Shown here: one piece after another, positions 2,027 to 63,201 of the stretch | Numbering within the stretch: the first letter of the stretch is position 1 | Layout: each line of letters begins with the position of its first letter | DNA from: Candidatus Doudnabacteria bacterium | GTDB taxonomy: Bacteria; Patescibacteriota; Doudnabacteria; UBA920 | NCBI GenBank assembly: GCA_963768175.1 | Contig: CAVYGQ010000002.1 | Location: forward strand, 7,270-71,269 | Direction: 5' to 3' | DNA: 64,000 nucleotides | Program-made: the position numbers and the translations under genes | Notes under the pieces: model-generated | Databases searched by the model: none | Seen by the model: the letters and a program-made list of their open reading frames with translations, nothing else | Told to the model about the DNA's origin: nothing

Positions 2027-2062
2027 GCTACATTCCTCGCGTGAAATCATCAAAGTCCTGGA

Positions 2063-2104
2063 AAGCCCTGCCCTGTCGGATGACGGGGCGGGGCTTTGTT
2101 TTTT
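2063..2104 (+). terminator. rho-independent terminator hairpin (stem CCCTGCCCTGTC / GACGGGGCGGGG, loop GGAT) followed by a T-run
   Basis: GC-rich inverted repeat followed by TTTGTTTTTT, seen directly. Confidence 0.6.
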
Positions 2105-11457: not shown

Positions 11458-11742
11458 TTGAAACAAAAAACAAAAATAAAATTACATATTGTGTCTCCAC
11501 AAGAGCGACAATTTATGCTTGGCTCGGGTAAGCTGATTCCCATAAATCAGGCGGCCAAAGGAACTCCGTACTCCGCGGAGTATTTGAGCTTGCTTGCAAG
11601 AAAAGGTAGGCTGGATGCCGTTAAAATTTCTCGCGATTGGTTGACTACCGAGAACGCGGTTAAAGAGTACGTGGCCGAACAAATAGAAAAGCACCAGAAG
11701 ATGATGCTTCTTTTGGGCAACTCTGGAAAGGAGGCGCCATGA
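11458..11742 (+). CDS. small HTH protein (excisionase/MerR-like HTH_17 fold), paralog of 18240..18521
   Basis: TPYSAEYLSLLARKGRLDAVKISRDWLTTENAVKEY resembles the excisionase-family HTH (AEYLGVS...G.LPAVKIGRRW). Stop overlaps the start of the giant gene (ATGA). Confidence 0.45.
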   Translation: MKQKTKIKLHIVSPQERQFMLGSGKLIPINQAAKGTPYSAEYLSLLARKGRLDAVKISRDWLTTENAVKEYVAEQIEKHQKMMLLLGNSGKEAP

Positions 11743-14700
11743 AAATTTCCAGGAAAATGGCGCGAGCCTTAGGCCGGAAAATTGTTGTACCACAAACCGC
11801 CCTTGCGGTTGTTGCGGTTGTGGTTTTAGGCAGTTTTGCGTTTTTGTGGCTGCATCCCAATAAAGCATTCAAGCCGGAAAGCTTAGTTGAAAAGCAGCGG
11901 GTATTGTTTGCATATAACCAAACCACAGCCAGCCCAGATTCCGCCATCCCTTCATTTATCCAAGTCTTAACTGGTGAAGATTTTTCATATGTCGCGGGCC
12001 CAAAAACAGAAGTTTTAGCCGCAACTCCGCCCCCCTTTAGGCAACAGGATTCTTTACCGAACGTGCAGTCTTGCAAAGAATTTCTAGCTAGCTTTGGGGT
12101 CCAAAGTAACAGGGCGGTTTCGCAGTTAGGGTTTAACATATTAAATGATTGGGAATCGGTAAGTGATTTGGCGGTAAGGTCAAATGACCAAGTTCATACG
12201 CTGGCAAATAATTTTGTATCCGACATTAAAGCACCTTACTTGGCTGCGGCCAGCGTCTTACGTCCCGCTTTGCGCGAGCAAAAAAATCAGGCCATAGCCT
12301 TAGGCGGTAAAATTAATCAAATTTACAACCAACAGCTTTTGGCGTTTGGAAATGAAGGCATTAAGTTTTTTGACGGGGTAACCTCGCTGGAAGCGTCATC
12401 TGTTTCGCGGGCTGTCGCAGCGGGGAGCCAAGTCAACAACTTCTTTGCCCAGCTGAATAAAAATTACAATGAAATTCTTTTAGCCTGCGGACAGGCAGGG
12501 ATAAAATCTTTGGACCAGCTTTCCATCTCGGAAGCAAGGCAAGCCAGCCACGCAGAGGTCATTACCATAGATGCCCAAGTTGCGTTTGCTGATTTTTACG
12601 CGCATGCCAGCGATGACGCTTTGGCTTTGGCCGAGCCGGTACAGTTGCTCTGCGATAAAGCCAATGATCAATTGTTGGCTTTAGGGCAATTTATAATCGG
12701 GCCCGGCGAGGAGAATATTTTGCCGGAGATGACGCACGAGAAGATGCTAGCGACGAAGCTTGCTAACTATGAGGCCGCCATTAAATTAAGTTCAAAGAAG
12801 GTTTTACGTACAAATGCATCAGCGCTTTTGGCAATGGCGCCAAACGGGAAGGGGCAAGTCCTTGCCGCACATACCGTTGCCCAACAGTCCGCTTCGGCTG
12901 CTTCCTTAAGCCGGCAAGTTAAAGATATCCTTTACGGTTTTATGCAGCAGGGTTTATTTGGGCTTAGTGCTTCCAATTACGCTCCCGATGGCATCTTGCA
13001 TGTGGGAGTTAATAACGGGCAGACTTACAGCGTTTCTAGTGGTCTTGGGCAAAACAGTGGCGGCCAAACTACCTCGGTAATTGGTGGATCGTTCGCGCCG
13101 GTATCTTATGTCTTTGGCGGATCGGCCAGCAACTACACCACCGGCAGCATGGGAAGCTTTACGGATTTGTCGGCCACTAATTTTAGTTCAGGCAATAATA
13201 CCAATTTAAACCTCTTAAATGTATCCGGAGCAGCTACGCTGTCTTCGGCTCTTACTGTCGCTGGCAATACTTCTTTAGCTTCCGCATCAATTACCAGTTT
13301 GGCTTTAAGTCAGCCGCTATCTTTAACTTCGGGCGGCTTGGGTATAGACGCGTCCGCCATTTTAAAGGGCGGCATTCTTGCCGGCACGGGCAGCGGCATG
13401 TTTGGCATCCAAACTGCCGGCTCCGATGGACTCTGCCTAAGCGCTTCTTCTACCGCGGTTTCAGGACTGGCCTGGACTGCTTGTACTTCGTCTTCCACGG
13501 CCGTTACTTTGCTTAACGGTCAAAGCCAGGGCAGCCAAACTTTTGCCACGGGCAGCGATGCCAATATTGTTTTGACCGTTATTTCCCAAAACGGCATACA
13601 TACTTTTACCCCAAGCTGGCAAGGGCAATTGGCTGTCAGCCGTGGCGGCACCGGCACCTCCACCGCCCCTACTGCCAACCAGATACTAATCGGTAATGGC
13701 GCTGGGGGCTACAACCTGGTGGCGACCTCCACCTTAGGTTTGCAGCCTGCGGGCAACTACTTAACTGCCGCCTTAACCTCCCTCTCCGGCATGACCGGCC
13801 CGGCCTTAACCATCGCCACCTCCACCTCGGGCAATACCTTTACCTATGCCACCTCCACCAACCAGCTGACCTTGACCATCCCCCAGAATCTCATTAACAG
13901 CGTTGCCACCTCCTCCAGCTCCGGCAGCTTCTACGTCTCGACCTCCAGCACCGGCTCCACCAACGCCTTAACCATCAACTTCCCCAATAACCTGGTGACC
14001 TCGGTTTCCGGCTCCGGCTCCCTCCTCTCTTCCGGCGGCACTACTCCCACCCTCCAGCTGCAGAACTTAACCAGCGGTGACCTGCTGTTTGGAGCCGGCA
14101 GCAACACCTTGGCCACCTCCACCAATTTGACCTTTACCGGCAATAACCTGCTCAGCGTCAACGGCTCCATTAACGCCAGTTCCTCCAACTTTACCAATGC
14201 TTCCACCAGCAACCTGACCGTCACCAGCTTTTCCAACTCCAACACCTACTGTGTCCACAGTGTTAATGGATTGCTCCAGACCACGGCCTCGGACTGTGGA
14301 GCCGGAGGCGGCGGCGGAGGCGGTTGGTCCACCTCTTCTCCAAACACCATCTATAACTCCTTTGGTACCTTAGTCGGCATTAACTCCACTACCCCCATTG
14401 CCAGCCTTACAGTGCAAGGGAAATCCGGCTCTACTACCCCCATCTTTGTGGTGGCTTCTTCTACCAACGCCCAATACTTAACCGTCCTGGCTAACGGGAA
14501 TGTGGGGATTGGGACGAGTGCTCCAGCCCAGACTTTAACACTGCAGGGCACTTCGGGAACGGATTTATTGAACATCGCTTCCTCAACCGGCACGAGTGTG
14601 CTGTATGTCGCCCAGAACGGCAATATCGGCATTGGCACCACCACGCCGGCCGCCACCTTAAACGTGCTGGGTACGGGAATTATCCAGAGCTCCACCAACA

Positions 14701-17700
14701 CCCCCACGGCTTTCCAGGTGCAAAACGCCAGCGGCACCCCAATCTTGCTGGTAGATACCACCCCGACCTTTGGCGCCACCACCACCAATTACATCGCCAA
14801 TCCGGGCTTTGAAGTCAACACCTCCGGTTGGGCGGCTTCCGGCACCGGCGCCACCATTGCCCGGGTGACTACCAATAAGTATATGGGTCTGGCTTCATTA
14901 AAGATTGACAGCTACGGCTCGGGAGCCGGCCAAGGAGCCAGCACCACTGCCTTTGTCATGAGCCCCGCCGCCGGCACCTATGTCTTAAGCTTCTACGCCC
15001 GCACCGACATCAGTTCCTCCAGCTTTAGCACTTTAATGGCCGGCTATAGCACCAGCACCCAGTTCTCCGCCTGTACCCTAAACTCCAACACGGTCTCCAA
15101 CCTGGGTTGGAGACGCTATAACTGCAGCTTTACCGTAAGCGGCCCCATTACCCAAATCTTCATCGGCCAATCCGATGCCAACCCCAACCGCACCTTCTAT
15201 ATTGATTCCATCCAGCTGCAGTTGGGCAGCGCGCCTACCCCTTATGCCATCGGCAACATCCAGCTCCGCGGCGTCATTACCAGCCCGGTGTCCCTGCAGT
15301 CCCTGTCCAACTCCGTCACCGCTTTCCAAATCCAGGATCAGACCGGAGTGTCCAACCTGTTCATCGCCGATACCTTAAACAACGCCATTGACATCGGCAC
15401 CTCCACCGGCACCTCCGTTTTGAACATCCAGGGAGCAGCCGGTACCTCTAATTCTTTATTAAACATCTCTTCCTCCACCGGCGCTTCCATGTTCTATATT
15501 GCGGCTACCGGCAGAATCGGCATTTCTTCCAGCACCCCTGCGGCAACTCTCTCTCTGCAAGGCACTTCGGGAACCAATGCCCTGTACATCGCCAGCTCCA
15601 CGGGAACCGGCTTAATGGTCATCCAGCAAAACGGTAACGTGGGCATCGGCTCCTCCACCCCCACCGGGTTATTATCCGTGCAGGGAACCAGCGGAGTGTT
15701 TACAGACTTAAGCGATCTGGTCTTTACCGGTACCGGTCCTTTAGCCGCTACCACAGTCAACGGCTTAAAGATCCAAAGCTACCTAACCTACGGGGCAGGC
15801 GGCCAGTTTAACGGCATTTACCTGCCGATAACCGGCTCCGGTACCGCCACCGGCACCATTGTTGGCATCAACATCGGCAGCATTACCGCCGGCAGCGCTA
15901 CGGCCACCGCCATCTCCATCGGCAGCGGCTGGAATTCCTACCTGAACCTTGCCACGACCGCCACCACGACCTTAATCAACATCCAGGGCACGGCCGGCCG
16001 CGACACCCTAAACATCTCTTCCTCCACCGGCGCTTCCATGTTCTATATTGCGGCTACCGGCAGAATCGGCATTTCTTCCAGCACCCCTGCGGCAACTCTC
16101 TCTCTGCAAGGCACTTCGGGAACCAATGCCCTGTACATCGCCAGCTCCACGGGAACCGGCTTAATGGTCATCCAGCAAAACGGTAACGTGGGCATCGGCT
16201 CCTCCACCCCCACCGGGTTATTATCCGTGCAGGGAACCAGCGGAGTGTTTACAGACTTAAGCGATCTGGTCTTTACCGGTACCGGTCCTTTAGCCGCTAC
16301 CACAGTCAACGGCTTAAAGATCCAAAGCTACCTAACCTACGGGGCAGGCGGCCAGTTTAACGGCATTTACCTGCCGATAACCGGCTCCGGTACCGCCACC
16401 GGCACCATTGTTGGCATCAACATCGGCAGCATTACCGCCGGCAGCGCTACGGCCACCGCCATCTCCATCGGCAGCGGCTGGAACTCCTACTTAAACCTTG
16501 CCACGACCGCCACCACGACCTTAATCAACATCCAGGGCACGGCCGGCCGCGATACTTTGAACATCTCTTCCTCCACCGGCGCTTCCATGTTCTATATTAC
16601 AAATGGCGGCAACGTCGGCATCGGCTCATCCAGCCCCATCGCTACTTTAGCCCTAACCGGCACTGTCGGGACCAACCCCTTAGTGGTTGCCTCTTCCACC
16701 GGTACCCAGCTTTTGACAATCCTGCAAAACGGCAACGTGGGCATCAATACCAGTACGCCCGGGGCGACTTTAGCCATCCAGACCCAGGCCGGAGTTAACG
16801 CTTTCACCGTGGCTTCCAGCACTGGCTCCACCACTACCTACTTTACCATTACCAGCATTGGCAACGTCGGCGTCGGCACGGCCACTCCGGCAAGCAGGTT
16901 TGTGGTGGCCGCTAACTGTTCCGGCTTCAACGCCAACCCCGGCGCCTGTTCCGATTATGCCGAATTATATCCTGCCAGCGAGGATATTACTGCTGGTGAT
17001 GTGGTGGTTATAGATACCTCGGCCTCTGCGGCCGCGGTCAGGTTAAGCACTTCTTCCTACGATTCCAACCTTTTGGGAGTGGTCTCCACTAATCCGGCTA
17101 TGGTTATAGAAGGCGACAGCGTGCAGTTTATGAACGGCAATTACCATAATGATCCGCGCCGTCCGGCCGTGGCGCTGGCCGGGCGCGTGCCAGTCAAAGT
17201 TACCAACGAGAACGGCAATATTTATCCTGGTGACTATTTAACTTCCTCGGCTTCGCGACCGGGCTTTGCCATGAAAGCCACAGGCGCAGGCATGGTTTTA
17301 GGCCAGGCGCTTGAAAGTTTTAATCCGTCTTTTGACAACGCCACAGGCACAGTTATGGTATTTATCAAACCCATGCACTATGTGCCAAAAGTGGCTGATT
17401 TGCTTCAAATTGGGGCAAATATTGACAATCAGGCATGGCTTTTGTCGCTGGCGAATTTGAATATGACCAACGCTTCGGTCTTTGGCGATATCGCCGTTAC
17501 TGGCTCTTTGGCTGTGCAAAATGATCTTCATGTGGGTGGCATAATTTACGTTGCGACTTTGAATGTGGACACCATTAACGCCAAGAAATTATGTTTGGGG
17601 CAAACTTGCGTGACCGAAGACCAGCTTAAAGCAATATTACAGTTCGTAAACAGCCAAAACCAAAATTCCTCGAACCAGCCCGTCACCTCCGGTTCGGGGC

Positions 17701-17780
17701 AAGCCGCCCCTTCTACCGGCGGTTCTTCCGATTTCTCAACAGGCTTGCGCCTGCGACGGGACAAGTTGCCCCTCAATTAG
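11739..17780 (+). CDS. giant (2013 aa) cell-surface protein: N-terminal signal anchor, Ser/Thr/Gly-rich beta-repeat region, CBM4/9-like carbohydrate-binding module, tandem duplicated repeat domain, globular C-terminal domain
   Basis: N-terminal TM. CBM4_9-like segment NPGFEVNTSGW...GTYVLSFYART...WRRYNCSFT...FYIDSIQL. Recurring T.T..L.V.QNGNVGIG..TP.A.L.V.G repeats. Exact 183-aa duplication. Confidence 0.7.
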   Translation: MKISRKMARALGRKIVVPQTALAVVAVVVLGSFAFLWLHPNKAFKPESLVEKQRVLFAYNQTTASPDSAIPSFIQVLTGEDFSYVAGPKTEVLAATPPPFRQQDSLPNVQSCKEFLASFGVQSNRAVSQLGFNILNDWESVSDLAVRSNDQVHTLANNFVSDIKAPYLAAASVLRPALREQKNQAIALGGKINQIYNQQLLAFGNEGIKFFDGVTSLEASSVSRAVAAGSQVNNFFAQLNKNYNEILLACGQAGIKSLDQLSISEARQASHAEVITIDAQVAFADFYAHASDDALALAEPVQLLCDKANDQLLALGQFIIGPGEENILPEMTHEKMLATKLANYEAAIKLSSKKVLRTNASALLAMAPNGKGQVLAAHTVAQQSASAASLSRQVKDILYGFMQQGLFGLSASNYAPDGILHVGVNNGQTYSVSSGLGQNSGGQTTSVIGGSFAPVSYVFGGSASNYTTGSMGSFTDLSATNFSSGNNTNLNLLNVSGAATLSSALTVAGNTSLASASITSLALSQPLSLTSGGLGIDASAILKGGILAGTGSGMFGIQTAGSDGLCLSASSTAVSGLAWTACTSSSTAVTLLNGQSQGSQTFATGSDANIVLTVISQNGIHTFTPSWQGQLAVSRGGTGTSTAPTANQILIGNGAGGYNLVATSTLGLQPAGNYLTAALTSLSGMTGPALTIATSTSGNTFTYATSTNQLTLTIPQNLINSVATSSSSGSFYVSTSSTGSTNALTINFPNNLVTSVSGSGSLLSSGGTTPTLQLQNLTSGDLLFGAGSNTLATSTNLTFTGNNLLSVNGSINASSSNFTNASTSNLTVTSFSNSNTYCVHSVNGLLQTTASDCGAGGGGGGGWSTSSPNTIYNSFGTLVGINSTTPIASLTVQGKSGSTTPIFVVASSTNAQYLTVLANGNVGIGTSAPAQTLTLQGTSGTDLLNIASSTGTSVLYVAQNGNIGIGTTTPAATLNVLGTGIIQSSTNTPTAFQVQNASGTPILLVDTTPTFGATTTNYIANPGFEVNTSGWAASGTGATIARVTTNKYMGLASLKIDSYGSGAGQGASTTAFVMSPAAGTYVLSFYARTDISSSSFSTLMAGYSTSTQFSACTLNSNTVSNLGWRRYNCSFTVSGPITQIFIGQSDANPNRTFYIDSIQLQLGSAPTPYAIGNIQLRGVITSPVSLQSLSNSVTAFQIQDQTGVSNLFIADTLNNAIDIGTSTGTSVLNIQGAAGTSNSLLNISSSTGASMFYIAATGRIGISSSTPAATLSLQGTSGTNALYIASSTGTGLMVIQQNGNVGIGSSTPTGLLSVQGTSGVFTDLSDLVFTGTGPLAATTVNGLKIQSYLTYGAGGQFNGIYLPITGSGTATGTIVGINIGSITAGSATATAISIGSGWNSYLNLATTATTTLINIQGTAGRDTLNISSSTGASMFYIAATGRIGISSSTPAATLSLQGTSGTNALYIASSTGTGLMVIQQNGNVGIGSSTPTGLLSVQGTSGVFTDLSDLVFTGTGPLAATTVNGLKIQSYLTYGAGGQFNGIYLPITGSGTATGTIVGINIGSITAGSATATAISIGSGWNSYLNLATTATTTLINIQGTAGRDTLNISSSTGASMFYITNGGNVGIGSSSPIATLALTGTVGTNPLVVASSTGTQLLTILQNGNVGINTSTPGATLAIQTQAGVNAFTVASSTGSTTTYFTITSIGNVGVGTATPASRFVVAANCSGFNANPGACSDYAELYPASEDITAGDVVVIDTSASAAAVRLSTSSYDSNLLGVVSTNPAMVIEGDSVQFMNGNYHNDPRRPAVALAGRVPVKVTNENGNIYPGDYLTSSASRPGFAMKATGAGMVLGQALESFNPSFDNATGTVMVFIKPMHYVPKVADLLQIGANIDNQAWLLSLANLNMTNASVFGDIAVTGSLAVQNDLHVGGIIYVATLNVDTINAKKLCLGQTCVTEDQLKAILQFVNSQNQNSSNQPVTSGSGQAAPSTGGSSDFSTGLRLRRDKLPLN
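15462..16559 (+). repeat. near-identical tandem duplication, 2 x 549 bp, inside the giant gene
   Basis: Minus-strand ORFs 15494..15760 and 16043..16309 are identical (offset 549). Sequence starting 15462 repeats at 16011. A third, diverged partial unit begins near 16558. Confidence 0.85.
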
Positions 17781-37485: not shown

Positions 37486-37563
37486 CAAAAAGGACAAAAA
37501 CGACGTAAATGACTAAAATGTGACTGCGGTTTATTTTTGTCATTTTTATTATTTATTTAATTT

Positions 37564-43359: not shown

Positions 43360-44658
43360 ATGTATGCTAAAATTATGTTTTTATTAAACAATAAAAGTAA
43401 AAAGCTATTTTTACCTAAACTACAAAAAGTGGCGCGGGGTAAAATCACAAATCACACCCCAGCCATCCGGCGGGGTGGCACGTCGAATGACCGTGCCAAA
43501 TCACTAATCACAAACCCCCAAGCCGGGGTTACCTTGCTTTTGGCGATATTGATTTTAGCTTCTGTCTTGGCTATTAGTTTTAGCCTGGCGACGATTATGT
43601 TTATAGAAGTAAGGGATTCCGGAGATTTGCTAAAAACCGAACCGGCGCTTTATGCCGCTACCGGGGTAGGCGAGCAGGCTTTTTTTAACTTGGAAAGGCA
43701 TATTTGCACAAACGGCTGTTCTTACACTACAAGTTTTCCCAATAACGTAGCTATAAACGGCCCCCCTACCGTACTTTCTACTTCAACGCCTATATTTGTC
43801 GCCAAGGTTAAGGCCGGGGCAACTTTTGGCAATACGTTAAATAAGTATGATTTTTGTAATGCCGCTGCCGGAGCGTCGGGGTGTTATTATGGAAAAGTAA
43901 TCGTCAATTATATTACGACCAATAGTAATCCGACTGGTACCCTCCATGTTTATTTATGTCAATTTAATCCGTATTTAACAGGCTCATCAGGTTATACAAC
44001 CACTCCGTGCACAGTAGCAAGCAGTACCCAGCCTTATTGGGACGACCCAGACGGCGGTATTACAGATTCCGACGGTGGCGTTTCCATGTATTCGGGGGGT
44101 AACAATAGCTCCGATTCCTGGACTTTAACTCCCAGTTGGCAGCAGCAATTAATTTTAACCAATCCCGGCACTCAAGGCGATATTTATGTACAAATACAGA
44201 CTTACGCCGATCAGCTTGGCACTATTGGCAAGGGCTTGCCTTATGTGGGGCAAACTGTCGTGGATATTAATACCTTAAACGCGGCGGTAGGCAGGAAGAT
44301 TCAAGTAATAGTTCCTAACTCATCCTCCTCTTTTGTGGCCACGAGCTCCGTTGCTACCCAATTTTTAGTTGCGGCTCCGGGTATAGCAACCGCCGGAAGC
44401 CCATTTAGTAATCTTTTGGTTGAGGCCACGGATAGCAACAATAACGTTATTACCAATTATTCTGGAACGGTGCATTTTACCAGCACGGATGGTACGGCAA
44501 CTTTGCCGGCTAACTCAACTTTAACCAACGGAACCGGCACCTTTTCGGCAACCCTTAATACTGCCGGCACCCAAACCATTACAGTAACCGATACCGCAAC
44601 TTCTTCAATTAGAGGAACCTCAAATTCAATTACAGTTAACCTAGCTAGTAAGCATTAA
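43360..44658 (+). CDS. PilX-like minor pilin N-terminus plus Ig-like (Big_2-type) domain; probably the 5' part of a longer gene continued in 44645..45679; true start likely downstream of 43360
   Basis: PilX_N-like QAGVTLLLAILILASVLAISFSLA. C-terminal ...TQTITVTDTATSSIRGTSNSITV is an Ig-like strand pattern. Confidence 0.45.
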   Translation: MYAKIMFLLNNKSKKLFLPKLQKVARGKITNHTPAIRRGGTSNDRAKSLITNPQAGVTLLLAILILASVLAISFSLATIMFIEVRDSGDLLKTEPALYAATGVGEQAFFNLERHICTNGCSYTTSFPNNVAINGPPTVLSTSTPIFVAKVKAGATFGNTLNKYDFCNAAAGASGCYYGKVIVNYITTNSNPTGTLHVYLCQFNPYLTGSSGYTTTPCTVASSTQPYWDDPDGGITDSDGGVSMYSGGNNSSDSWTLTPSWQQQLILTNPGTQGDIYVQIQTYADQLGTIGKGLPYVGQTVVDINTLNAAVGRKIQVIVPNSSSSFVATSSVATQFLVAAPGIATAGSPFSNLLVEATDSNNNVITNYSGTVHFTSTDGTATLPANSTLTNGTGTFSATLNTAGTQTITVTDTATSSIRGTSNSITVNLASKH

Positions 44659-45705: not shown

Positions 45706-45745
45706 AAAAAACCCCGCCCCGTCGGATGACGGGGCGGGGTAAAAT
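45706..45745. terminator. bidirectional terminator hairpin CCCCGCCCCGTC-GGAT-GACGGGGCGGGG between convergent genes
   Basis: Perfect 12-bp stem with A-run and T-run flanks. Same stem and loop as the terminator at 2063. Confidence 0.65.
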
Positions 45746-50113: not shown

Positions 50114-51694
50114 AGAAAAAATTAAAGCGGGCCGGCGGCGACATCGTAAGGCGATGCGCGCGCGGGTCCGCTAACTTTTAATATTTAACCTTCAACTTCC
50201 AATACCTGTGGTTATCTTTGGGGAATACATTTTTTGAAAAACTAAAAGGCCGCTTATTTAAGGTTGAAATTTTTTATTAACCCTAAACCAGCCACTTCTT
50301 GACAAAGATATTAAAATCATCTAAAATAGTTAAGCAATAAGTTAATAAGAAACGACTATTATGAAAAAAGCTTTATTATTAAGGAAAACGCGGTTTATGT
50401 AAAACGGCCAATTTAAATTGTGCCTGACATAGCCGCGAAAGCGGTTTTTTTGTTGAAAAGCGACACCAACACACGAATACACGCGAATGACACGAATCAA
50501 AGACCTTTAAAATTATCGCCGTATACTTACTGCTCTGCGGATCTCAGCGTTCCAATTTTTTTGGGAACACAGGCTCGTAGAACCGATTTAGAGCAGTAGC
50601 TATATGATGGTAATTGTATTCCTCTGAACAGGCCAAGGGCCTGTGCCACAGCGACGATTATCGTCAGGTTCTTTAACAACTAAATAAAATAAGCCACCAC
50701 GTATAGAATCAGGCGTGGATGGCTTATGGGTAGAAACATTGTAAGAACTAACACACCAATTAACACAGATTGAAAACAAATGAACACGGATTCGTGTTAA
50801 TCCGTAATTATCGGTGTCAATTAGTGTGCAGAAAAGAACATTGTATCCTTACGCAGTTTGCATCAAACAGTTGTAAGATTTAGGATTAAAGATTTAAGTG
50901 GCTGCAGATTGCAGTTACTTACAATTTTAATCTTTCAACTCTCAACTAATTTGGTGGTCACAAATTGCTAGTTAATACTTGTCCCCGCGAAAGCGGGGAT
51001 CAATAGAATATAAAATATATAAGGGTATACGGTGGATGCCTAGGTAATATGAGCCGATGAAGGACGTGATAGCCTGCGAAAAGCCTCGGGGAGCTGGCAA
51101 TAAGCTTTGATCCGGGGATGTCCGAATGGGGAAACCCATGCACTGGAAGAGTGCATGCCTATATGCCGTGGGGTATGTAGTGCGGGAACCGTGCGAAGTG
51201 AAACATCTCAGTAGCACGTGGAAAATAAATCAATTTACGTCGCAAGACGTAAGAGAGATTCCGTCAGTAGTGGCGAGCGAAAGCGGAAGCATATATCAGA
51301 TAAATCGGAGAATCGGATGAATCGGAAAATCAGATCAAACATTATTGAAAAATGGTGTTTTGATCCGACTTCCGACTTCCGACATTCCGATTATTCTGGT
51401 ATTAGCCCAAACCTAATTAGTGTTTTCTAGATCCCCGCTTTCGCGGGGACAGGATTAAAGATTACAGTCGTTGCTAGTTAGGCGTAATAAGTTAGAGTTA
51501 TTGTCCCGCTGTAACGGGACAGGGAATTATGTTTGTTGTTTAGCAGAACACGCCTGGAACGGCGGACCAAAGAGGGTGATAGTCCCGTATCGCGAAAAAC
51601 CATGCAATTTCCTAACTTTTTCTTGAGTACAACCAGACACGAGAAATCTGGTTGGAAATCAGGTCGACTAAGATCTAAGGCTAAATACTCATAT

Positions 51695-51735
<41 letters not shown>

Positions 51736-52376
51736 CACCCCGGAAGGGGGATGAAATAGTATCTGAAACCGTATACTTACAAGGAGTGGAAGACCTTATT
51801 CTTTTTTCCGCAAGGTTAAGGGAATGGTTAACCGCGTGCCTATTGAAGAATGATCCAACGAGTTAATCTTTAGCAGCTTGATTAAGTCTTACCAAAGACG
51901 AAATCGCAGTGAAAGCGAGGATGAATAGTCCGTATTAGGATTTTGATCGGTCGATGACTTAGGTTATCGACCGCGACAATTTCCTAAATGTTGCTAGAGT
52001 TAGACCCGAAACCCGGTGAGCTACGCATGGCCAGGATGAACGTTATGTAAAAGTAACGGGAGGTCCGGACGCACTATTGCTGCAAAAATAGGCGATGAGC
52101 TGTGCGTAGGGGAGAAATTCCAATCGAACCGGGTGATAGCTGGTTCTCCTCGAAATAGCTTTAGGGCTAGCGTCGAGAGTTCCCTTGAGAGGTAGAGCAC
52201 TGAATGGAAACCTGCTGCGCAAGCGGTAGGCTCCAACCAAACTCCGAATTCTCAAGGTCAAGATCTCGGCAGTCAGTCCGTGAGGTCTAAGCTTCACGCG
52301 ACAAATGGAGAAGAATCCACACCACCGTCTAAGGCCCCCAAATCCTAGCTATAGTGCAAAGGATGTGGGGTTGCTC

Positions 52377-52413
<37 letters not shown>

Positions 52414-52511
52414 TAAAGAAAGCGTAACAGCTCACTGGTCAAGCGATCCCGCGCCGACAATATATAGGGGCTAAGCTAGGTGCCGAAGACGTGGATCAGC
52501 GCGTAGCGCTG

Positions 52512-52649
52512 GAAATCCGAAGCACGAAATCCGAAATACGAAACAATATTTAAATTCAAAAAAATAAATCCGAAATGTCGGGTTTAGATATTTGAATTTA
52601 TGATTTAGAATTTGTTTCGAATTTCGATATTCGAATTTCGAATTTGCAG
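52512..52649 (+). other. intervening sequence (IVS) in 23S helix 45: AT-rich hairpin built from TCCGAAAT/ATTTCGAA repeats
   Basis: Inserted between ...GATCAGCGCGTAGCGCTG and TGCTATGCGCTGG (E. coli position about 1170). Long imperfect inverted repeat GGAAATCCGAAGCACGAAATCCGAAATACGAAAC ... GTTTCGAATTTCGATATTCGAATTTCGAATTTGC. Confidence 0.5.
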
Positions 52650-53729
52650 TGCTATGCGCTGGTGGTAGAGGAGTGTTGTTTGCAGGTTGAAGCGGTATGC
52701 GTAAGCGGCCGTGGACAGCAAACAAGCAAGAATGTTGGAATAAGTAATATATATAGAGGTGAGAATCCTCTTCGCCGAATATCCAAGGGTTCCAGGGCAA
52801 CGATCGTCGTCCCTGGGTTAGTCGATCCTAAGAGCGGGCCCCAAGGGGTCCGTCCGATGGAAAATATGGTTGATATTCCATAACCGCCGTAACATTATCC
52901 AAGACGGGACACATCATGGTAGCGTTAGCGTTATCTGACTATTAGCGTTGTTGTACTTGTAGGATGGTTTTTGAGGCAAATCCCAAAGACCTATGCAATT
53001 ATTTCTTACCTCGCAAGAGATGGAAGTAAACGTTGTAATTTCGAGAGTACAAAGAAACCTGGCAACGGGAATTAGCGCAAACCAAGGTGTCAAGAAAAGC
53101 GTCGTGGTTAGGTGCTAGGGTGATCGTACCGTAAACCGACACAGGTGGATGGGGAGAGAATCCCAAGGCGTCCGGAACAATGTTCGTTAAGGAACTCGGC
53201 AAAAAAGCAGGTGTACCTTAGGTATATACCTTGACCTTTTATATGCTGGGTAATGAGAAATTGGAGAAGATAATTCTCCATCAGGAAAGTGGATACCAAA
53301 CAGCCGCACTTATCATGCAGCTGGGAAGGGCTTGACCGATAATCAAGTTTCGGCCTCTGGCCGAGTCCACCTAACAAAGGAGGGAATTCCAGTGTGTGCA
53401 TCCATGGCACAGCTCCGTGCCGCTACTTCATCCTAAAGAGGGTGAAAGCAACTCCGGTCATCGGGGCTGCCTCTTTCCATAGTAGCTGTACACACTGCCC
53501 TCCTTTGGATAATCATCTAATTTTGATTATCCTCATTACCCAGCATATTAAAAGGCCCGCAGCAAAAGACCTCTCCCGACTGTTTACCAAAAACTTAGGT
53601 CCGTGCTAAAGCGCAAGCTGATGTATACGGGCTGATGCCTGGCCAGTGTCAGAAGGTTAAATCCCTTGGCGCAAGCCGAGGGGCCAAGCCCTGATGAACG
53701 CCGGCAGTAACTATAACTGTCCTATGGTA

Positions 53730-54137
53730 ACTGGAATTTATTCTTTTTGGGCGTCATTCTGAGGAGCGAAGCGACGAAGAATCTCAAAATGAGATCCTTC
53801 ACTTCGTTCAGGATGACGCCGATAAGAAGTTTGGCTGCCATAGTAAAATGTAACTATATCGGAAAAAACCTCTCTGAGAAAATTCCGAGGGAAGACTTTT
53901 GTGTCATCGCGAGTGCAGCCGAAGCGATCTTTAAAAGATTGCTTCGTCGGATGCACTCCTCGCAATGACACAGAGGAACCCGTAGAGACTACACGTTGCA
54001 CATCATTTTGGTGATGAAGATATAGTCCGGACTGCATAGCGATATGCAGAATGTGACAGAAATGATCACATTTGTCATTCTGAATTTATTTCAGAATCTA
54101 GATTCCCGCTTTCGCGGGAATGACAATAACAAATCAA
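53730..54137 (+). other. ORF-less group I intron in 23S at the E. coli 1923-equivalent site (between GGTCCTATGGTA and GCGAAATTCC)
   Basis: Exon junction matches CGGTCCTAAGGTA^GCGAAATTCCTTGTCGGG. Conserved R-like GTAGAGACTACACG and S-like GAAGATATAGTCCGG core elements. Peripheral stems carry family B palindromic repeats. Confidence 0.6.
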
Positions 54138-54692
54138 GCGAAATTCCTTGTCGCGTAAGTTGCGACCCGCACGAATGGCATAACGAGTAGAGGACTGTCT
54201 TAACGAACATTCCGATGAACTTACAGTGGCGGTAAAGATGCCGTCTACCCGCAGCAAGACGGAAAGACCCTATGAAGCTTTACTATAGCGTGTCATTGAA
54301 TTAATGCTTTTATTGTTTAGCCTAGGTGGGAGCCTTTGAAGCTTGGGCGCCAGCTCAAGTGGAGGCGACAGGTGAAATACCACTCTGTAAAAATATTAAT
54401 TCTAACCAATGTTTAACCTGCATTGGGACAGTGGCTCGTGGGTAGTTTAACTGGGGCGGTTGCCTCCTAAATGGTAACGGAGGCGTTTATTAAGGTAGGC
54501 TAGGTATGGATGGAAATCATACCGGTAGTGCAAACGCATAAGCCTGCTTGACTGCAAGGGCGGCGACCCGCGCAGGCACGAAAGTGGAAGTTAGTGATCC
54601 GATGCGTTCGAGTGGAAGACGCAAAGCCCAACGGATAAAAGTTACTCTAGGGATAACAGGCTGATCCTCTCCAAGAGTCCACATCGACGAGA

Positions 54693-54731
<39 letters not shown>

Positions 54732-54735
54732 GTGA

Positions 54736-54772
<37 letters not shown>

Positions 54773-55195
54773 TGGTACGCGAGCTGGGTTCAAAACGTCG
54801 TGAGACAGTTTGGTCCTTATCTGCTGTGGGTGTACGAAACTTGAGTAGTCGCTTCGCTAGTACGAGAGGACCGCGAAGCATAGACCTCTGGTGTACCCGT
54901 TGTCCTGTCAAGGGCATGGCGGGGTAGCTAGGTCTAGTTAAGATAAACGCTGAATGCATATAAGCGTGAAGCTGTCTACAAAACTAGGTTTCGTTTTTAG
55001 TCGCAAGACTAAAGAAAGGTTCGGGGAAGACTACCCCGTACAACTATTAGGTTTTAGATTAAAGTTGAAAGACTTAAGTAGCAATACTTAGATCCGTAAT
55101 CTTAAATCTTTAATCTGATATATAGGTTGCAGGTGTAAGCACAGTAATGTGTTCAGCCGAGCAATACTAATCAACCGAAAATTTTAAATTCTATT

Positions 55196-55257
55196 TTAAC
55201 CCTGTTAAATGCCGCTTTGCGGCAATTTGCTTTCGGCAAATTATTTAACAGGGTGAA
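55196..55257. repeat. structured palindromic element family A, copy 3 (in 23S-5S spacer)
   Basis: Outer stem ACCCTGTTAAAT/ATTTAACAGGGT. Inner hairpins GCCGCTTTGCGGC (the inverse of copy 2's GCCGCAAAGCGGC) and ATTTGCTTTCGGCAAAT. Confidence 0.7.
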
Positions 55258-55647
55258 TTAACTAGCAATTTGTGCATAGAGCGAAGCACCTTATTTTTCT
55301 CCCCCTTTGGGGGAGATGTCTCGAGCTAAGCGAGAGACAGAGAGGGTGTAATTAATTTATAATGTTCAAACAATATCTCAAGATTCTAGGTTTAGCGCTA
55401 ATTATTTTAGCAATCACCGCGGTTTTTTACTGTCTTAGCCTGGCAAGCGTAAATGCGTTAAAGCCTTAAATCTTTGAAAGCCTTCCACGTCGAATTTTAT
55501 TCCTGTCCCTTGGAAGGGGGACCCCAAAAATTAGGAGCGCAGTCACCCCCGAAGGAAGGGTGACGAGCACGGATTTTTGGGGAAGAGGAGTACTTTATGG
55601 AGTGTGTGAAATTTTGATTCTATCAAAATTGAACGTACGGAATAAAG

Positions 55648-55850: not shown

Positions 55851-56453
55851 ATGATTGCTACGATAGTTCTGATAATTTTTTTGGTTTTTGCCCTCGCTAT
55901 ATTGTTTGTTATAACTAGTGCTTTTTTGGGTTTTTTAATGACCCGTGTGCCGTTTGTCACTACTTACGCATCGGATGTGGAATTTTTTGTAAAAAAGCTC
56001 GGTCTTTCATCAAGCGACGTTTTTTATGACCTCGGCAGCGGGGACGGTAAAGTATGTTTTTTGGTCAATCAGTTAACAGGAGCAAAGTGTATTGGGTTTG
56101 AGTTGACTTGGTGGACATATCTTCTCGCAAAAATCAGATCAAAATTTAAAAATCAAAAATCAAAATTACAATTTAAAAACCACCCCGTCATTCGACGGGG
56201 TGCCCGGTCGAATGACGGGGCAGAGGTAAAGTTCGTTAACGGTAATTTTTTTAAATATTCCTGGAGCGAAGCCAACATTATTTATGGTTATCTTTTTCCG
56301 CCGCTTATGGGCAGAGTGGAAGAAAAATTTTTGACCGACTGCAAGCCCGGCAGCATTGCCGTTATTCGCGATTTCCCTTTTCCGCGCATGGCTTATACGG
56401 ATAAATTTTATTTGCCCAAAAAGCACGAGATTTATATTTACAAAAAAGTGTAG
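55851..56453 (+). CDS. class I SAM-dependent methyltransferase-like protein with N-terminal TM and an in-frame palindromic insertion
   Basis: Motif I DLGSGDGKV. Insertion KNHPVIRRGARSNDGAEV is encoded by the hairpin pair at 56180-56225. Confidence 0.55.
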   Translation: MIATIVLIIFLVFALAILFVITSAFLGFLMTRVPFVTTYASDVEFFVKKLGLSSSDVFYDLGSGDGKVCFLVNQLTGAKCIGFELTWWTYLLAKIRSKFKNQKSKLQFKNHPVIRRGARSNDGAEVKFVNGNFFKYSWSEANIIYGYLFPPLMGRVEEKFLTDCKPGSIAVIRDFPFPRMAYTDKFYLPKKHEIYIYKKV

Positions 56454-57423: not shown

Positions 57424-57514
57424 CCGACCCGAATGACCCGAATTAGAATCCGAATAACCCGAAATGGGCCAATTCGGATAATTCGGGTGGAATTCGGGTA
57501 TTAGGGTCGCTACT

Positions 57515-60026: not shown

Positions 60027-61931
60027 ATGCAACTATCAGAATTTAAAAAGATATATCAAGAATCCATCAAAGATCCCGAAAAGTTCTGGGAGAAAGTTGC
60101 ACGTGAGGAAATCGTCTGGTTTAAAAAGTGGGACAAGGTTTTTGAGTGGGATTATCCTAACTATAAATGGTTTGCGGGAGGGAAGCTGAACATTACCCAT
60201 AACTGTTTGGACAGGCATATTGCTTCCGGATTGGGCGATAAAATTGCGCTGATTTATTTAAACGAAAAATATGAGAGGATTGCGATAACTTATCAGGAAC
60301 TGCTTAATCAGGTCAGTAAGTTTGCCAATGGGTTAAAAAGTTTGGGTGTAAAAAAAGGTGACAAGGTGGTTTTGTATATGCCGCTGGTAATAGAGCAGGC
60401 GGTTGCGATGCTGGCTTGCGCCCGCATCGGCGCGGTGCATAGCGTGGTATTTGCGGGCTTTAGCGCCAACGCCTTGCGCGAAAGGGTGGAAGATTTACGG
60501 GCAAAAATTATTGTCACGGCAACCTGGACCCAGCGCCGCGGGGAAAAGAAATTATTGAAGCCCGCGGCTGAAGAGGCTATTAAAGGTTTGGATTTTGTAG
60601 AGCATCTGGTAGTTTTACAGAGATGGGCACCATCTCGCGGCGAGATGGTGCCCATCTCCGGCATTGAGAGGGATTTTTACCAACTGACAGAAAAGCAAAA
60701 CGATATTTGCGAGCCGGAAATAATGGATGCGGAAGACCCTTTGTTCGTGCTGTATACTTCCGGTTCCACCGGCAAACCTAAAGGCATCGTCCACAGTTGC
60801 GGCGGTTTTTTGGTTTACGCGCACCATACTTTAAAAACAGTTTTTGATATTCGGGAAAACGATATCTACCCCGTTAGAAGTCAGACGCCGAAGGCGTCTG
60901 CTGGCCTGCCAAAGGCAGGCCAGACTTCTAACGGGGTGTATTGGTGCACCGCGGACTTTGGCTGGATAACCGGCCACAGTTACGTGTTGTATGGGCCGCT
61001 GTCTAACGGTCTGACATCGCTTATGGTGGAAGGCGCGCCGGATTTTCCCGCTCCCGACCATTGGTATAAAATTATTGAACAGGAAAAAGTAAATATTTTT
61101 TATACCTCGCCAACGGCTTTAAGGATGCTTAGGAAATACGGCGAAGAATATTGCAAACTTCACGACTTATCCTCGTTAAAAATTTTGGGCACGGTCGGCG
61201 AGCCCATTAATCCCGAAGTCTGGCGATGGTATTTTAAATTTATCGGTAACGAACGCTGCCCGATTGTAGATACCTGGTGGCAAACGGAGACCGGCGGGCA
61301 TATGGTGGTGACTTTGCCGGGATTGCCGCAAAAACCCGGCAAAGCGGGGTTCCCCTTTTACGGCATAGATGCCGGCGTTGTCAACCAAAGCGGGCAAGAG
61401 TTGCCGATTAACGAAAAAGGCTTTTTAGTCGTCAAAAAACCCTGGCCCGGGGCTTTGCGCGGCTGCTGGAATAATCCCGAGAGGTTTAATCAATATTGGA
61501 GTGAGTTTCCAGGCGTTTTTTTTACCGGAGACTTTGCCATAAAAGATGAAGACGGTTATATCCAAATTTTGGGGCGCAGCGACGACGTCATTAACGTATC
61601 AGGGCATCGCATTGGCACCGCGGAAGTGGAAAATGTTTTGGTGGCACACGTTGCGGTTGCCGAGGCCGCGGTTATTGCCAAACCCGATGAAATTAAAGGC
61701 GAGCGGCTTAAAGCTTTTGTGGTGTTAAAGACAGAGATTGTCGGCGATGAAGTTTTGAAGTCAAATATCCAAAAGTTTATTAAAGCGGAAATTGCCTCGT
61801 TCGCCGTTCCGGAGGAAATAGAATTTGTTTCTAGCCTTCCTAAAACCCGCAGCGGCAAAATTATGCGCCGCGTGCTTAAAGCCAAAGAACTGGGGCAGAG
61901 CGAAGGCGACCTGACAACTTTGGAAGACTAA
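60027..61931 (+). CDS. acs: acetyl-CoA synthetase (AMP-forming) carrying a 69-nt in-frame palindromic insertion
   Basis: YTSGSTGKPKG, ...YWCTAD(F/V)GWITGHSY..., C-terminal SGKIMRR. The insertion PVRSQTPKASAGLPKAGQTSNGV interrupts the conserved DIY-WCTADVGW block. Confidence 0.9.
   Translation: MQLSEFKKIYQESIKDPEKFWEKVAREEIVWFKKWDKVFEWDYPNYKWFAGGKLNITHNCLDRHIASGLGDKIALIYLNEKYERIAITYQELLNQVSKFANGLKSLGVKKGDKVVLYMPLVIEQAVAMLACARIGAVHSVVFAGFSANALRERVEDLRAKIIVTATWTQRRGEKKLLKPAAEEAIKGLDFVEHLVVLQRWAPSRGEMVPISGIERDFYQLTEKQNDICEPEIMDAEDPLFVLYTSGSTGKPKGIVHSCGGFLVYAHHTLKTVFDIRENDIYPVRSQTPKASAGLPKAGQTSNGVYWCTADFGWITGHSYVLYGPLSNGLTSLMVEGAPDFPAPDHWYKIIEQEKVNIFYTSPTALRMLRKYGEEYCKLHDLSSLKILGTVGEPINPEVWRWYFKFIGNERCPIVDTWWQTETGGHMVVTLPGLPQKPGKAGFPFYGIDAGVVNQSGQELPINEKGFLVVKKPWPGALRGCWNNPERFNQYWSEFPGVFFTGDFAIKDEDGYIQILGRSDDVINVSGHRIGTAEVENVLVAHVAVAEAAVIAKPDEIKGERLKAFVVLKTEIVGDEVLKSNIQKFIKAEIASFAVPEEIEFVSSLPKTRSGKIMRRVLKAKELGQSEGDLTTLED
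60869..60936 (+). repeat. perfect nested palindrome (14-bp outer stem CCCCGTTAGAAGTC/GACTTCTAACGGGG enclosing two hairpins) inserted in-frame in acs
   Basis: Inner hairpins AGACGCC-GAA-GGCGTCT and CTGGCCTGCC-AAA-GGCAGGCCAG. Total 69 nt, which is 23 codons. Confidence 0.8.
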
Positions 61932-61941: not shown

Positions 61942-63201
61942 ATGAAGGCATTAATTTTTGACAAAAGCAAAACTGATTGGGAAACATCACGGGGGTTTGA
62001 GTTGGCGGATATTCCCGAGCCGGTTTTGGACGAAAAGAAAAATCCCGCCGATGCCGATTATGTGGTTATGAAAGTACATTACGCCGGAGTGTGCGGCACT
62101 GACAAGGGCATTTGGAACCGGCAGGCTTTTAAGGATGCGATTTTGGATAGCATCGATGCGGAATCATTTCAACCTCTCTCGTCCCGACTTTCGTCGGGAC
62201 ACTCTCCCCATGTCTTGGGGAGAGAAATAAGGAAAGACTATCGAATTATCGGCCATGAATTTTTCGGTGAAGTAACCCAAGTCGGATCGGCCGTGAAGAA
62301 TATTAAGTCGGGGGATTTTGTGGCTTGCGAATCCCATGTAGTTTGCAATAAGTGTTATCAATGCTTGCATGGACAAAAAAATGTCTGTACCAACGAAAAG
62401 ATTTTGGGGATTTCCGTTGACGGCGGTTTTGCCGAGTATGCCAAGGTACCGGCGCAGGTAGTCTGGAAAACTGACACCGGGAAAATTCGTCCGGAAGTTG
62501 CCGCCATGCAGGAGCCATTTGGCAACGCGGTACATGCCGCCTCTAAAGTTGATTTAAAAGGTAAAACCGTGGCGATATTCGGGCTTGGCCCAATTGGCAT
62601 GTTTTTAACCATTATCGCGCGCGGTTTGAACGCCGCCTCCATTATCGGCGTTGAGCCAAATCCTATAGCTGGGGATATGGCAAAAAAGCTGGGGATTGAT
62701 TATGTTATTCCACTGAAAAATATCATCCCCCAGCCCCCTCTTAAAATAAGAGGGGGTGCCGAAGGCGGGGGTGATATAAAATCATACGCCCATAATACGG
62801 TAGTTGTTGATGAAATAAGAAAGATAACCAGCGGTCTGGGCGTTGACGTGGCGTTTGAGATGGCCGGGTTCAATAATTCAGTCAACAACGCCATTGCCTC
62901 GGTCAGGCGCGGCGGAGAAGTGATTTTGTTCGGCCTCAAAAACGGCGATTTTGTATTGGAAGATTACAATCGTCTGGTTATGAAGGGTGTAACCATGCAC
63001 TGCGTGGCTGGCCGGCAAATTTGGGAGACCTGGGAAACCACCCGCCGTTTGATGGAAGATGTCGCCAACGGTGTGCAGGAAAAACTATTCAACGTAATTT
63101 TAGACCGCGGCCACGGGACAATTTTGCCTATTTTAGAGTATAATAAAGAAAAGTTTGAAGAAATGATGGTTAAACATCCGAAATTTTTAATACAGTTTTA
63201 A
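61942..63201 (+). CDS. tdh: L-threonine 3-dehydrogenase (Zn-dependent MDR family) with two in-frame palindromic insertions
   Basis: CGTDxxIW...GHEFFGEV, catalytic and structural Zn Cys ligands (C..C..C...C), GLGPIG Rossmann motif. Insertions at about 62160-62232 and 62722-62790. Confidence 0.8.
   Translation: MKALIFDKSKTDWETSRGFELADIPEPVLDEKKNPADADYVVMKVHYAGVCGTDKGIWNRQAFKDAILDSIDAESFQPLSSRLSSGHSPHVLGREIRKDYRIIGHEFFGEVTQVGSAVKNIKSGDFVACESHVVCNKCYQCLHGQKNVCTNEKILGISVDGGFAEYAKVPAQVVWKTDTGKIRPEVAAMQEPFGNAVHAASKVDLKGKTVAIFGLGPIGMFLTIIARGLNAASIIGVEPNPIAGDMAKKLGIDYVIPLKNIIPQPPLKIRGGAEGGGDIKSYAHNTVVVDEIRKITSGLGVDVAFEMAGFNNSVNNAIASVRRGGEVILFGLKNGDFVLEDYNRLVMKGVTMHCVAGRQIWETWETTRRLMEDVANGVQEKLFNVILDRGHGTILPILEYNKEKFEEMMVKHPKFLIQF

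Follow-up and report, generated by a model that had tools for sequence, protein, structure and literature searches.

A double-hairpin palindromic repeat within a methyltransferase gene of Candidatus Doudnabacteria, and its relatives across Patescibacteria

Rickettsia palindromic elements (RPEs) lie in frame within protein genes, where they are tolerated in surface regions of the protein; the classical RPE-1 is roughly 100-150 bp long and is restricted to Rickettsia. The palindrome elements derived from IS200/IS605 have hairpins at their ends and are inserted 3' of a fixed short target with no target duplication, in genomes that contain TnpA. Repetitive extragenic palindromes (REPs) form head-to-head or tail-to-tail dimers with members 1-2 bp apart that fold separately or together, and they are found downstream of open reading frames (ORFs); dimers inside genes encode 20-30 amino acids (PMC3733652). 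One superfamily, the CGTC-tagged REPs, has no dedicated transposase (PMC3733652, Di Nocera et al. 2013), and RPE-4 and RPE-6 have been equated with CGTC REPs (PMC3733652). In mitochondria, double-hairpin elements (DHEs) and GC clusters, which include the Allomyces DHE, yeast GC clusters and the hairpin-forming repeats of sponges, occupy intergenic, rRNA and protein-coding sequence, and their mobility has been inferred, no enzyme being known (PMC2800124). The present work concerns a double-hairpin repeat, called here the “doublet”, at positions 56181-56222 of a 64-kb stretch of a Candidatus Doudnabacteria genome (contig CAVYGQ010000002.1), inside the gene of a DOT1-like methyltransferase. The whole stretch is referred to as the window; other genomes were seen as 8-kb loci, which carry numbers with the prefix L.

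The doublet is a head-to-head dimer of a REP-like palindromic unit of 20 nt that is dispersed in the genomes of Patescibacteria. Its full sequence is CA-CCCCGTC-ATTC-GACGGGG-TG-CCCGGTC-GAAT-GACGGGG-CA, in which the two hairpins abut and have the central TG in common. The arms and loop of hairpin 1 are CACCCCGTC-ATTC-GACGGGGTG and those of hairpin 2 are TGCCCGGTC-GAAT-GACGGGGCA, the latter with a G·G mismatch that arises because the 5' arm reads CCCGGTC and not CCCCGTC (Table 1). An earlier reading made from the sequence alone had described two adjacent hairpins with an identical stem and flipped loops; the pair is indeed present, but the loops are of 4 nt (ATTC and GAAT) and not 5, and the mismatch makes the second stem differ from the first. 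The folding energy of the doublet region is -33.2 kcal/mol for RNA (z = -4.9) and -20.7 kcal/mol for DNA (z = -4.8), and in neither case was any of 200 shuffled sequences as stable. The minimum-energy fold of the window copy is one long hairpin, not two.

Four homologous units occur in the window. A search with the 20-mer GCCCCGTCGGATGACGGGGC, allowing up to 3 mismatches, gave matches at 2070(+), 45716(+), 56182(-) and 56202(+), against 0.00 expected from 100 shuffles, and a census of hairpins with a TC-(ATYC|GRAT)-GA apex recovered exactly these 4 units in the 64 kb and none in 50 shuffles. The methyltransferase gene thus holds two adjoining units in opposite orientation, and two terminator-like hairpins elsewhere are built from the same unit. 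The bare 7-mer CCCCGTC is weakly enriched (11 occurrences compared to 5.2 expected), with the entire excess inside the unit hairpins; isolated copies are at chance frequency, and half-sites resembling DNA uptake sequences were rejected on this basis. That the same stem recurs with a GGAT loop in two terminators, as the sequence-only reading proposed, needs one amendment: both terminator-like copies exist, but the 5' arm of the hairpin at 2070 is CCCTGTC, which gives two G·U pairs in RNA. Both hairpins (2062-2097 and 45711-45740) are GC-rich, have a T run and lie downstream of a gene, as is expected of intrinsic terminators; the first looks like a terminator and the second looks like a bidirectional one. 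The doublet itself was rejected as an intrinsic terminator, since it lies inside an ORF and no T run comes after it, the sequence that follows being CAGAGGTAAAG. The hairpin at 2062-2097 also overlaps the end of a 30-aa ORF (MPKLHSSREIIKVLES|PALSDDGAGLCFLY) within 2019-2111, which starts like a HicA toxin, has no Pfam match, and comes after a small ORF that matches DUF7387 below the threshold; the hairpin may have cut off a toxin gene here.

A decayed second doublet lies in the window at the 5' end of an ORF (43360..44658). Its sequence is ACCCCAGCC-ATCC-GGCGGGGTG / GCACGTC-GAAT-GACCGTGCC, and it is flanked by AAATCACAAATCAC and AAATCACTAATCAC.

The doublet was also sought in other genomes by a scan for CCCCGTCGRATGACGGGG in one genome per species, which returned at least 118 loci. 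About one third of these are ordinary terminators in unrelated phyla, for which convergence on the same core is plausible. Among the matches listed, there are 22 loci, with 23 copies, at which the match forms the second hairpin of a doublet with the layout found in the window. Nearly all of them belong to Patescibacteria, the exceptions being metagenome-assembled genomes (MAGs) labelled as Omnitrophota (1) and Gammaproteobacteria (2), and the lineages represented are Nealson-, Morani-, Giovannoni-, Niyogi- and Uhrbacteria, Saccharibacteria, Paceibacterales and others. The layout they share can be written X-[7-bp stem, ATYC]-X'-[CCCCGTC-GRAT-GACGGGG]-X, with CG, CA or TG as X and the complementary dinucleotide as X'.

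An alignment of 24 sequences identifies the doublet as a composite of two hairpins. Under the two-hairpin model 98.7% of positions are paired, and 6 of the 9 pairs in hairpin 1 covary, with 34 compensatory cells and 0 one-sided (G·U) changes, a result reached by 0 of 500 shuffles. For a single long hairpin there are 0 compensatory changes, and its pairing does not exceed that of shuffled sequences, so that covariation rules it out as the conserved structure. The stems covary below invariant apical motifs, TCATYCGA and TCGRATGA, in which the Y of one loop and the R of the other vary independently. Because all of the stem changes are Watson-Crick double changes and none produces G·U, the pairing is kept at the DNA level. 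The absence of G·U argues for a constraint acting on DNA, or on both strands, rather than on RNA from one strand, and it fits the possibility that a hairpin or cruciform is what is recognised or copied. The single-unit terminator at 2062-2097 stands in contrast, since it tolerates its two G·U pairs in the transcribed orientation.

Covariance model R1 scores the window copy at 62.0 bits on one strand and 60.0 bits on the other, and it scores each of the other doublets near-equally on both strands; the doublet is therefore rotationally symmetric, and from whichever strand it is read the ATYC hairpin comes before the GRAT hairpin. No match to the doublet was obtained in Rfam 15 at the gathering score, and the E-value mode gave only sub-threshold chance matches, so the doublet was rejected as a member of a known RNA family. 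In viral contigs, the pattern TCATYCGA-N12-16-TCGRATGA had 117 matches, none with stems of at least 6 bp; these are chance matches to the loop pattern, and carriage by phages was rejected. A search of the literature found no description of these elements in the candidate phyla radiation (CPR).

The symmetry bears on the earlier suggestion that flipped loops on a conserved stem are a clue to the mechanism of movement. The parts of that suggestion that hold are the homology of the repeated units and the pairing at the level of DNA; recombination within hairpins, or inversion of loops, finds no support. Both loop orientations do persist across the survey, ATYC and GRAT occurring together in every doublet rather than one orientation alone, but flipping denotes only opposite orientation, because reading a stem-loop from the opposite strand leaves its stem unchanged and puts the complement in place of its loop. 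The same is true of another repeat in the window, Family A, for which inverted inner hairpins in copies 2 and 3 had been noted correctly (GCCGC-AAA-GCGGC at 3491 and GCCGC-TTT-GCGGC at 55211). They are inverted because copy 3 lies in the opposite orientation, and this copy (55200-55253) aligns to copies 1 and 2 only as its reverse complement (19 and 23, compared to 2 and 6). Flipped loops carry no mechanistic information beyond inverted orientation.

The methyltransferase of the window has 200 aa, while most of its homologues (n = 233), which are annotated as Patescibacteria, have 176-180 aa. In a 31-sequence alignment the difference is located in a 20-aa segment, absent in most homologues, which is in frame and is encoded by the 42-nt doublet together with 18 nt that weakly repeat the preceding codons (LQFKN / VKFVN). 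The segment (HPVIRRGARSNDGAEVKFVN) is placed between a helix ending in ...AKIRSKFKNQKSKLQFKN and the conserved strand xFxNxNFFK, and the doublet is presumably translated. In an AlphaFold2 model of the protein, with a mean predicted local distance difference test score (pLDDT) of 86, residues 101-120 average about 52 and residues 117-121 fall below 50, in a region that lies between a helix at 87-108 and a strand at 126-130; because confidence drops there, the insert is predicted to be a disordered surface loop. Relatives with an empty site (P0032 and P0052 among them) have unstructured A/T-rich lysine codons at this point, with folding energies of 0 to -9 kcal/mol. The loop is a hot spot for insertions, since unrelated GC-rich hairpin elements occupy it in other lineages.

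Other copies of the doublet bear signs of its spread among loci. Identical 44-nt doublets are found in unrelated Pro/Glu-rich proteins of a Saccharibacteria MAG and an Uhrbacteria MAG (L061 and L110). Three contigs of one Moraniibacteriota MAG each carry a copy, and two of these copies have the stem variant CCATGTC (L008 and L102), and two Niyogibacteria MAGs have a common variant, CCCTATC, beside different tRNAs (tRNA-Ile and tRNA-Pro); stem variants are thus specific to lineages, yet they lie at different loci. In SecA (L006), CACCCGGTCATTCGACCGGGTGCCCCGTCGGATGACGGGGCA is in frame and is read as HPVIRPGAPSDDGAE, which is the same frame and nearly the same peptide as in the window copy. Further in-frame copies lie in long ORFs for leucyl-tRNA synthetase (LeuRS; L023), a 694-aa protein (L057), a prepilin-peptidase-like protein (L106) and a 1755-aa surface protein (L110). 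When SecA and LeuRS were compared with solved structures, the inserts fell in variable linkers, and the alignments neither delimit nor contradict an insertion.

At 13 of the 22 loci, among the matches listed, the doublet is inside tRNA loop sequence. The loops concerned are the T, anticodon and D loops of partial tRNA-gene duplicates that lie beside an intact tRNA. In the “3' type” (10 loci), an intact tRNA is followed by a spacer of 16-90 nt ending in GGTTCR, the doublet, and then a partial copy of the tRNA that starts at A58 and continues to the 3' end. In the “5' type” (3 loci), a copy of the tRNA that starts exactly at +1 and extends to a loop is followed by the doublet, and the intact tRNA is ~330-380 nt downstream, measured from start to start. 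Many doublets are flanked by GGTTCR...AATCC, which resembles a split T loop, and the insertion points conform to YTYR|A (TTCG|A, TTCA|A, CTTG|A, TCCG|A). After deletion of the insert in silico, ARAGORN detected no tRNA over the junction; these are therefore not interrupted functional genes, and a tRNA intron was rejected since deletion restores no tRNA and the pieces are partial duplicates next to intact tRNAs. At one locus (L102), the ORF between the tRNA pieces encodes a GIY-YIG nuclease (Pfam E = 6e-15), an arrangement suggestive of a small nuclease cassette inserted into a tRNA gene. A GIY-YIG homing nuclease was rejected as the general mobiliser, since it was seen at this locus only (1 of the 22 among the matches listed).

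The habit of the doublet of sitting in tRNA-gene loops can be read in three ways. The loops of hairpin DNA could be a preferred target, with only insertions in dispensable duplicates surviving; small elements carrying part of a tRNA beside the doublet could integrate in the manner of attachment (att) sites; or a repair or cDNA intermediate could yield target duplications of variable length.

Among described systems, REPs and their inverted dimers are the nearest known kind. Both are short GC-rich imperfect palindromes repeated in the genome (20-40 nt for REPs, 20-22 nt for the window units), and both form inverted dimers, which for REPs are known as bacterial interspersed mosaic elements (BIMEs) or REP doublets forming hairpins (REPINs). 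The window units at 56182(-) and 56202(+) abut, and the window copy folds as one long hairpin where the covariation of the family supports two. Most REPs are terminator-like hairpins downstream of genes and a minority lie inside ORFs, a further likeness. The doublet has the dimer architecture and works like a REP dimer or a double-hairpin element, but it lacks the tag that defines the tagged REP families: the window copies have no unpaired GTAG/CGTC tag and no CCA tail, CGTC being instead inside the stem apex and the CA/TG/CG flanks being paired. The hairpins of the doublet also differ in that they abut and share a dinucleotide, the host is Patescibacteria, and association with the loops of tRNA fragments is not described for REPs. 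Copies of the form TGTC-ACCCCGTC-GAAT-GACGGGGT-CCA in Alphaproteobacteria fit the CGTC-REP grammar and share the exact 20-mer of hairpin 1 of the window.

These alphaproteobacterial copies form one block among the matches listed, consisting of REP-like pairs in freshwater MAGs (L024, L027, L040, L055, L063, L076, L088, L091 and others, some labelled 'Rickettsia typhi' or 'Rhizobium sp. Q54'). The MAGs contain many TGTC-ACCCCGTC-GAAT-GACGGGGT-CCAT copies, often as inverted pairs ~75 nt apart; the repeat is a CGTC-type REP family with a 20-nt core that matches hairpin 1 of the window exactly when the latter is read on the minus strand.

RPEs and mitochondrial DHEs are functional analogies. RPEs resemble the doublet in being found in frame in protein genes at tolerated positions, but the doublet has 42 nt, an unrelated sequence and a host among the Patescibacteria. 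Mitochondrial DHEs share the arrangement of two adjacent GC-rich hairpins in an A/T-richer genome, but they are organellar and eukaryotic with unrelated sequences, so the relation is one of analogy and not of homology. In comparison with the IS200/IS605-derived elements, the doublet has no consistent duplication and a loose YTYR|A context, and its 42 nt are too few to hold guide sequences.

Taken as a whole, the evidence is best explained, and we consider it fairly probable, by the doublet being an inserted copy of a REP-like, non-autonomous palindromic repeat of Patescibacteria that spreads at the DNA level. Under this explanation, a non-autonomous palindromic element would have spread as DNA, its hairpins being recognised or copied in single-stranded form by a putative enzyme supplied in trans, with a preference for loop-like or A/T-rich targets of the form YTYR|A. 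In the methyltransferase gene the doublet has been inserted in frame into an A/T-rich, disordered loop tolerant of insertions; copies in genes would survive only where the frame was kept and a tolerant loop was hit. The perfect complementarity of the arms may afterwards be maintained by local template switching or by gene conversion. The explanation is also supported by other in-frame hairpin inserts in the same genome, in the genes for acetyl-CoA synthetase and threonine dehydrogenase, and it has a precedent in the intragenic dimers of REPs.

Several observations weigh against this explanation. The flanks of the copies, which the sequence-only reading had pointed to as a place for target-site signatures, have no consistent duplication, the context YTYR|A being loose; none was found in the coding copies, and as a general feature target duplication was rejected, since it is limited to the window copy at 43456 (14 nt, 13/14 identical, in a low-complexity heptamer) and to L110, and is weak at the methyltransferase gene (8/15). 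No transposase, REP-associated tyrosine transposase (RAYT) or other candidate enzyme was seen in the 64-kb window or the 8-kb loci, although the window was not given a full Pfam scan. The explanation does not account for the 18 nt that follow the doublet. There is no close relative with an empty site, the nearest aligned homologue being ~74% identical, so that insertion into the methyltransferase gene is inferred from distant homologues. The copy number is low, with 2 doublets and 2 single units per 64 kb. Finally, the survey was seeded on an exact 18-mer, so the variation of hairpin 2 is unsampled, and the retention of an identical 18-mer across deep lineages could reflect selection for function.

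A bolder version of the explanation, to which we give a small but appreciable chance, would make the doublet the cis-acting site of an undescribed structure-specific process of DNA insertion or recombination in Patescibacteria. Such a process would target single-stranded loops (the T, anticodon and D loops of tRNAs, and other hairpin elements), would leave partial tRNA duplicates bounded by a loop and a mature tRNA end, and would seed the in-frame hairpin inserts of CPR proteins and rRNAs.

One rival, which we regard as unlikely, is that template switching during replication produced or remodelled the palindrome at its present site, with no mobile element. The polymerase would have used the other arm or strand as its template, a process that yields perfect stems and can turn loops around. 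Template-switch mutations are documented to create hairpins and loop inversions (PMC8794818), and they leave perfectly complementary arms, which agrees with the finding that every stem change is a Watson-Crick change on both sides and none gives G·U; in the window copy, moreover, hairpins 1 and 2 are nearly reverse complements of each other, so that a single long hairpin is the fold of lowest energy. The process also fits a palindrome in the acetyl-CoA synthetase (ACS) gene of the window, which resembles an inverted copy of native DNA. This is a perfect nested palindrome of 39 nt at 60620-60658 (GAGATGG-GCA-CCATCTC GCGGC GAGATGG-TGC-CCATCTC) that adds just 3 aa relative to a solved homologue and whose right arm still aligns to the native sequence (GEMVP vs GFEVP); it is probably an inverted duplication produced by template switching. 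But template switching acts on local sequence only, and the methyltransferase gene offers no local template for the insert; nor can it independently make the same 40-nt sequence in unrelated genes and phyla, which leaves the sequence shared across genomes unaccounted for. In the family at large the two hairpins are not reverse complements of each other, and their loops vary independently. Template switching is probably at most a secondary, homogenising process that contributes locally.

A second rival, likewise improbable in our judgement, holds that the doublet has been selected for a function that it performs in either orientation, for example as a protein-binding DNA site, an RNA processing or stability element, or an att-like recombination site of small integrative elements that target tRNA genes. 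The invariance of the apical motifs above covarying stems and the rotational symmetry are as such a site would have them, single units serve as terminators, one tRNA-linked unit carries a GIY-YIG nuclease gene, and at 13 loci the doublet lies exactly at the edge of a partial tRNA duplicate bounded by +1 or the 3' end, like the direct repeats of att sites. However, the segments between the tRNA repeats are mostly ~57-130 nt, which is too small for autonomous elements, the nuclease occurs at 1 of 22 loci (among the matches listed), no Rfam family was matched, and the doublet is found within the coding sequences of unrelated genes, read in various frames, and lacks a following T run.

A chance palindrome or by-product of coding sequence has practically no probability, for although GC-rich 7-bp stems recur as terminators in many phyla and make up about a third of the at least 118 matches, it is refuted by the shuffle test (4 units observed vs 0.00 expected; z = -4.9), by the alignment, in which most homologues lack the insert, and by at least 23 further copies of the same architecture in other genomes.

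Table 1. Positions and composition of the doublet, its units and the related features discussed in the text
Feature	Location	Strand	Description
Host gene	55851..56453	+	DOT1-like S-adenosylmethionine-dependent methyltransferase, 200 aa
Insertion	56181..56240	+	60 nt, 20 codons, in frame: HPVIRRGARSNDGAEVKFVN; 31-sequence alignment
Hairpin 1	56181..56202	+	CA-CCCCGTC-ATTC-GACGGGG-TG; perfect 9-bp stem; 20-nt unit in minus orientation
Hairpin 2	56201..56222	+	TG-CCCGGTC-GAAT-GACGGGG-CA; 8/9 pairs, one G·G mismatch; 20-nt unit in plus orientation
Single unit	2062..2097	+	16-pair stem including two G·U pairs, then T run; terminator-like
Single unit	45711..45740	.	13-bp extended stem ACCCCGCCCCGTC-GGAT-GACGGGGCGGGGT; between convergent genes
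Decayed second doublet	43456..43497	.	Covariance model R1: 38.8 bits, E = 1e-6
Family A copies	3322-3376, 3461-3515; 55200-55253		First two in tandem upstream of RRM-protein gene; third in opposite orientation after 23S
5' type tRNA locus	L095		tRNA-Arg; 36/36 identical up to G36 of anticodon
5' type tRNA locus	L103		tRNA-Ser; doublet after G35; extra single unit in D loop
5' type tRNA locus	L102, ~620-1130	minus	Pseudo-tRNA-Gln (1-57), doublet, GIY-YIG nuclease ORF, intact tRNA-Gln
Other insert in methyltransferase loop	L119		Three-way-junction “Family A” element
Other insert in methyltransferase loop	L139, L153		CTCCCCC-TTT-GGGGGAG + second-hairpin family
Other insert in methyltransferase loop	L133, L131		Nested insertions

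The window contains further hairpin inserts and repeats. Family A is a three-way junction with an outer stem CCCYGTTAAAT...ATTTAACRGGG and two variable inner hairpins, and relatives with a CCCCGTTAGAAGT outer stem are in frame in the ACS gene (60869-60936) and in the methyltransferase loop of L119 (703-756), both translating as YPV...NGV; the three-way-junction insert of ACS has 21-22 aa and lies between DIY and WCTAD. A threonine-dehydrogenase-like gene has two in-frame hairpin inserts of ~25-30 aa (62181-62224 and 62734-62756), and the insert stem CCCCCTCTTA/TAAGAGGGGG recurs between genes at 4707 with another loop (also 4707-4730 and 4545-4561). Between the 23S and 5S genes, at 55293-55345, lies an intergenic double-hairpin element, TTTTTCTCCCCCTTTGGGGGAGATG-[variable hairpin]-CAGAGAGGGTG, of the same family as in-frame methyltransferase inserts (FSPFGGDARV..PRAERV) of other lineages (L139, L133, L153); in L133 a perfect palindrome of 34 nt is nested in the second hairpin.

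The 23S rRNA (51009-55190) has 4182 nt compared to 2925 nt in the model, which implies ~1.25 kb of insertions. Two hairpins of the 23S region, TCCCCGC-GAAA-GCGGGGA (50982-50999) and TCCCCGC-TTTC-GCGGGGA (51432-51449), have a common stem with flipped loops, and ATTCCCGC-TTTC-GCGGGAAT-GACA at 54102-54121 fits, on the minus strand, the grammar of CGTC/TGTC-tagged (dRS3-like) REPs. The window contains a 5S rRNA and no 16S, and the tRNA-Ala and tRNA-Ile genes (27679-28323, minus strand) are 23 kb from the 23S-5S pair; the rRNA genes are therefore unlinked. A LOOT RNA lies at 23561-23687 (Rfam, 56.6 bits).

Other repeats of the window are of different kinds. Six or seven tandem 19-nt repeats (..ATATCGGTTTAAAC..) in an intergenic region at 18115-18247, near the minimum of the cumulative GC skew (~18-20 kb), are a candidate for an origin or iteron-like region. 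Repeats of 64 nt rich in ATTCGG lie directly upstream of genes at 34989-35052 and 57450-57513, one of them before glmS, and intergenic blocks rich in the heptamer AATGACAAAAA are found at 33231-33350, 36235-36364, 37461-37581, 40536-40583 and 63427-63467; both may be promoter or regulatory modules. A 2013-aa ORF (11739..17780), which is full of Gly/Thr/Ser-rich repeats, contains a perfect direct repeat of 300 nt (15460-15759 and 16009-16308, spaced by 549 nt).

The Patescibacteria, or CPR, have tiny genomes, and their proteins and rRNAs are known for odd insertions. The general phenomenon described here has precedents; what appears to be new is that the doublet is conserved across the CPR, that it is rotationally symmetric, and that it is linked to tRNA loops and partial tRNA duplicates. 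At least some CPR insertions are now tied to small GC-rich hairpin repeats that lie in frame in essential genes (SecA, LeuRS, acetyl-CoA synthetase and the methyltransferase), and for genome annotation this means that such inserts are not sequencing errors, introns or terminators. A compact 42-nt element common to deep CPR lineages could serve as a marker, and its Watson-Crick-only covariation and position in tRNA loops provide handles for finding the enzyme responsible.

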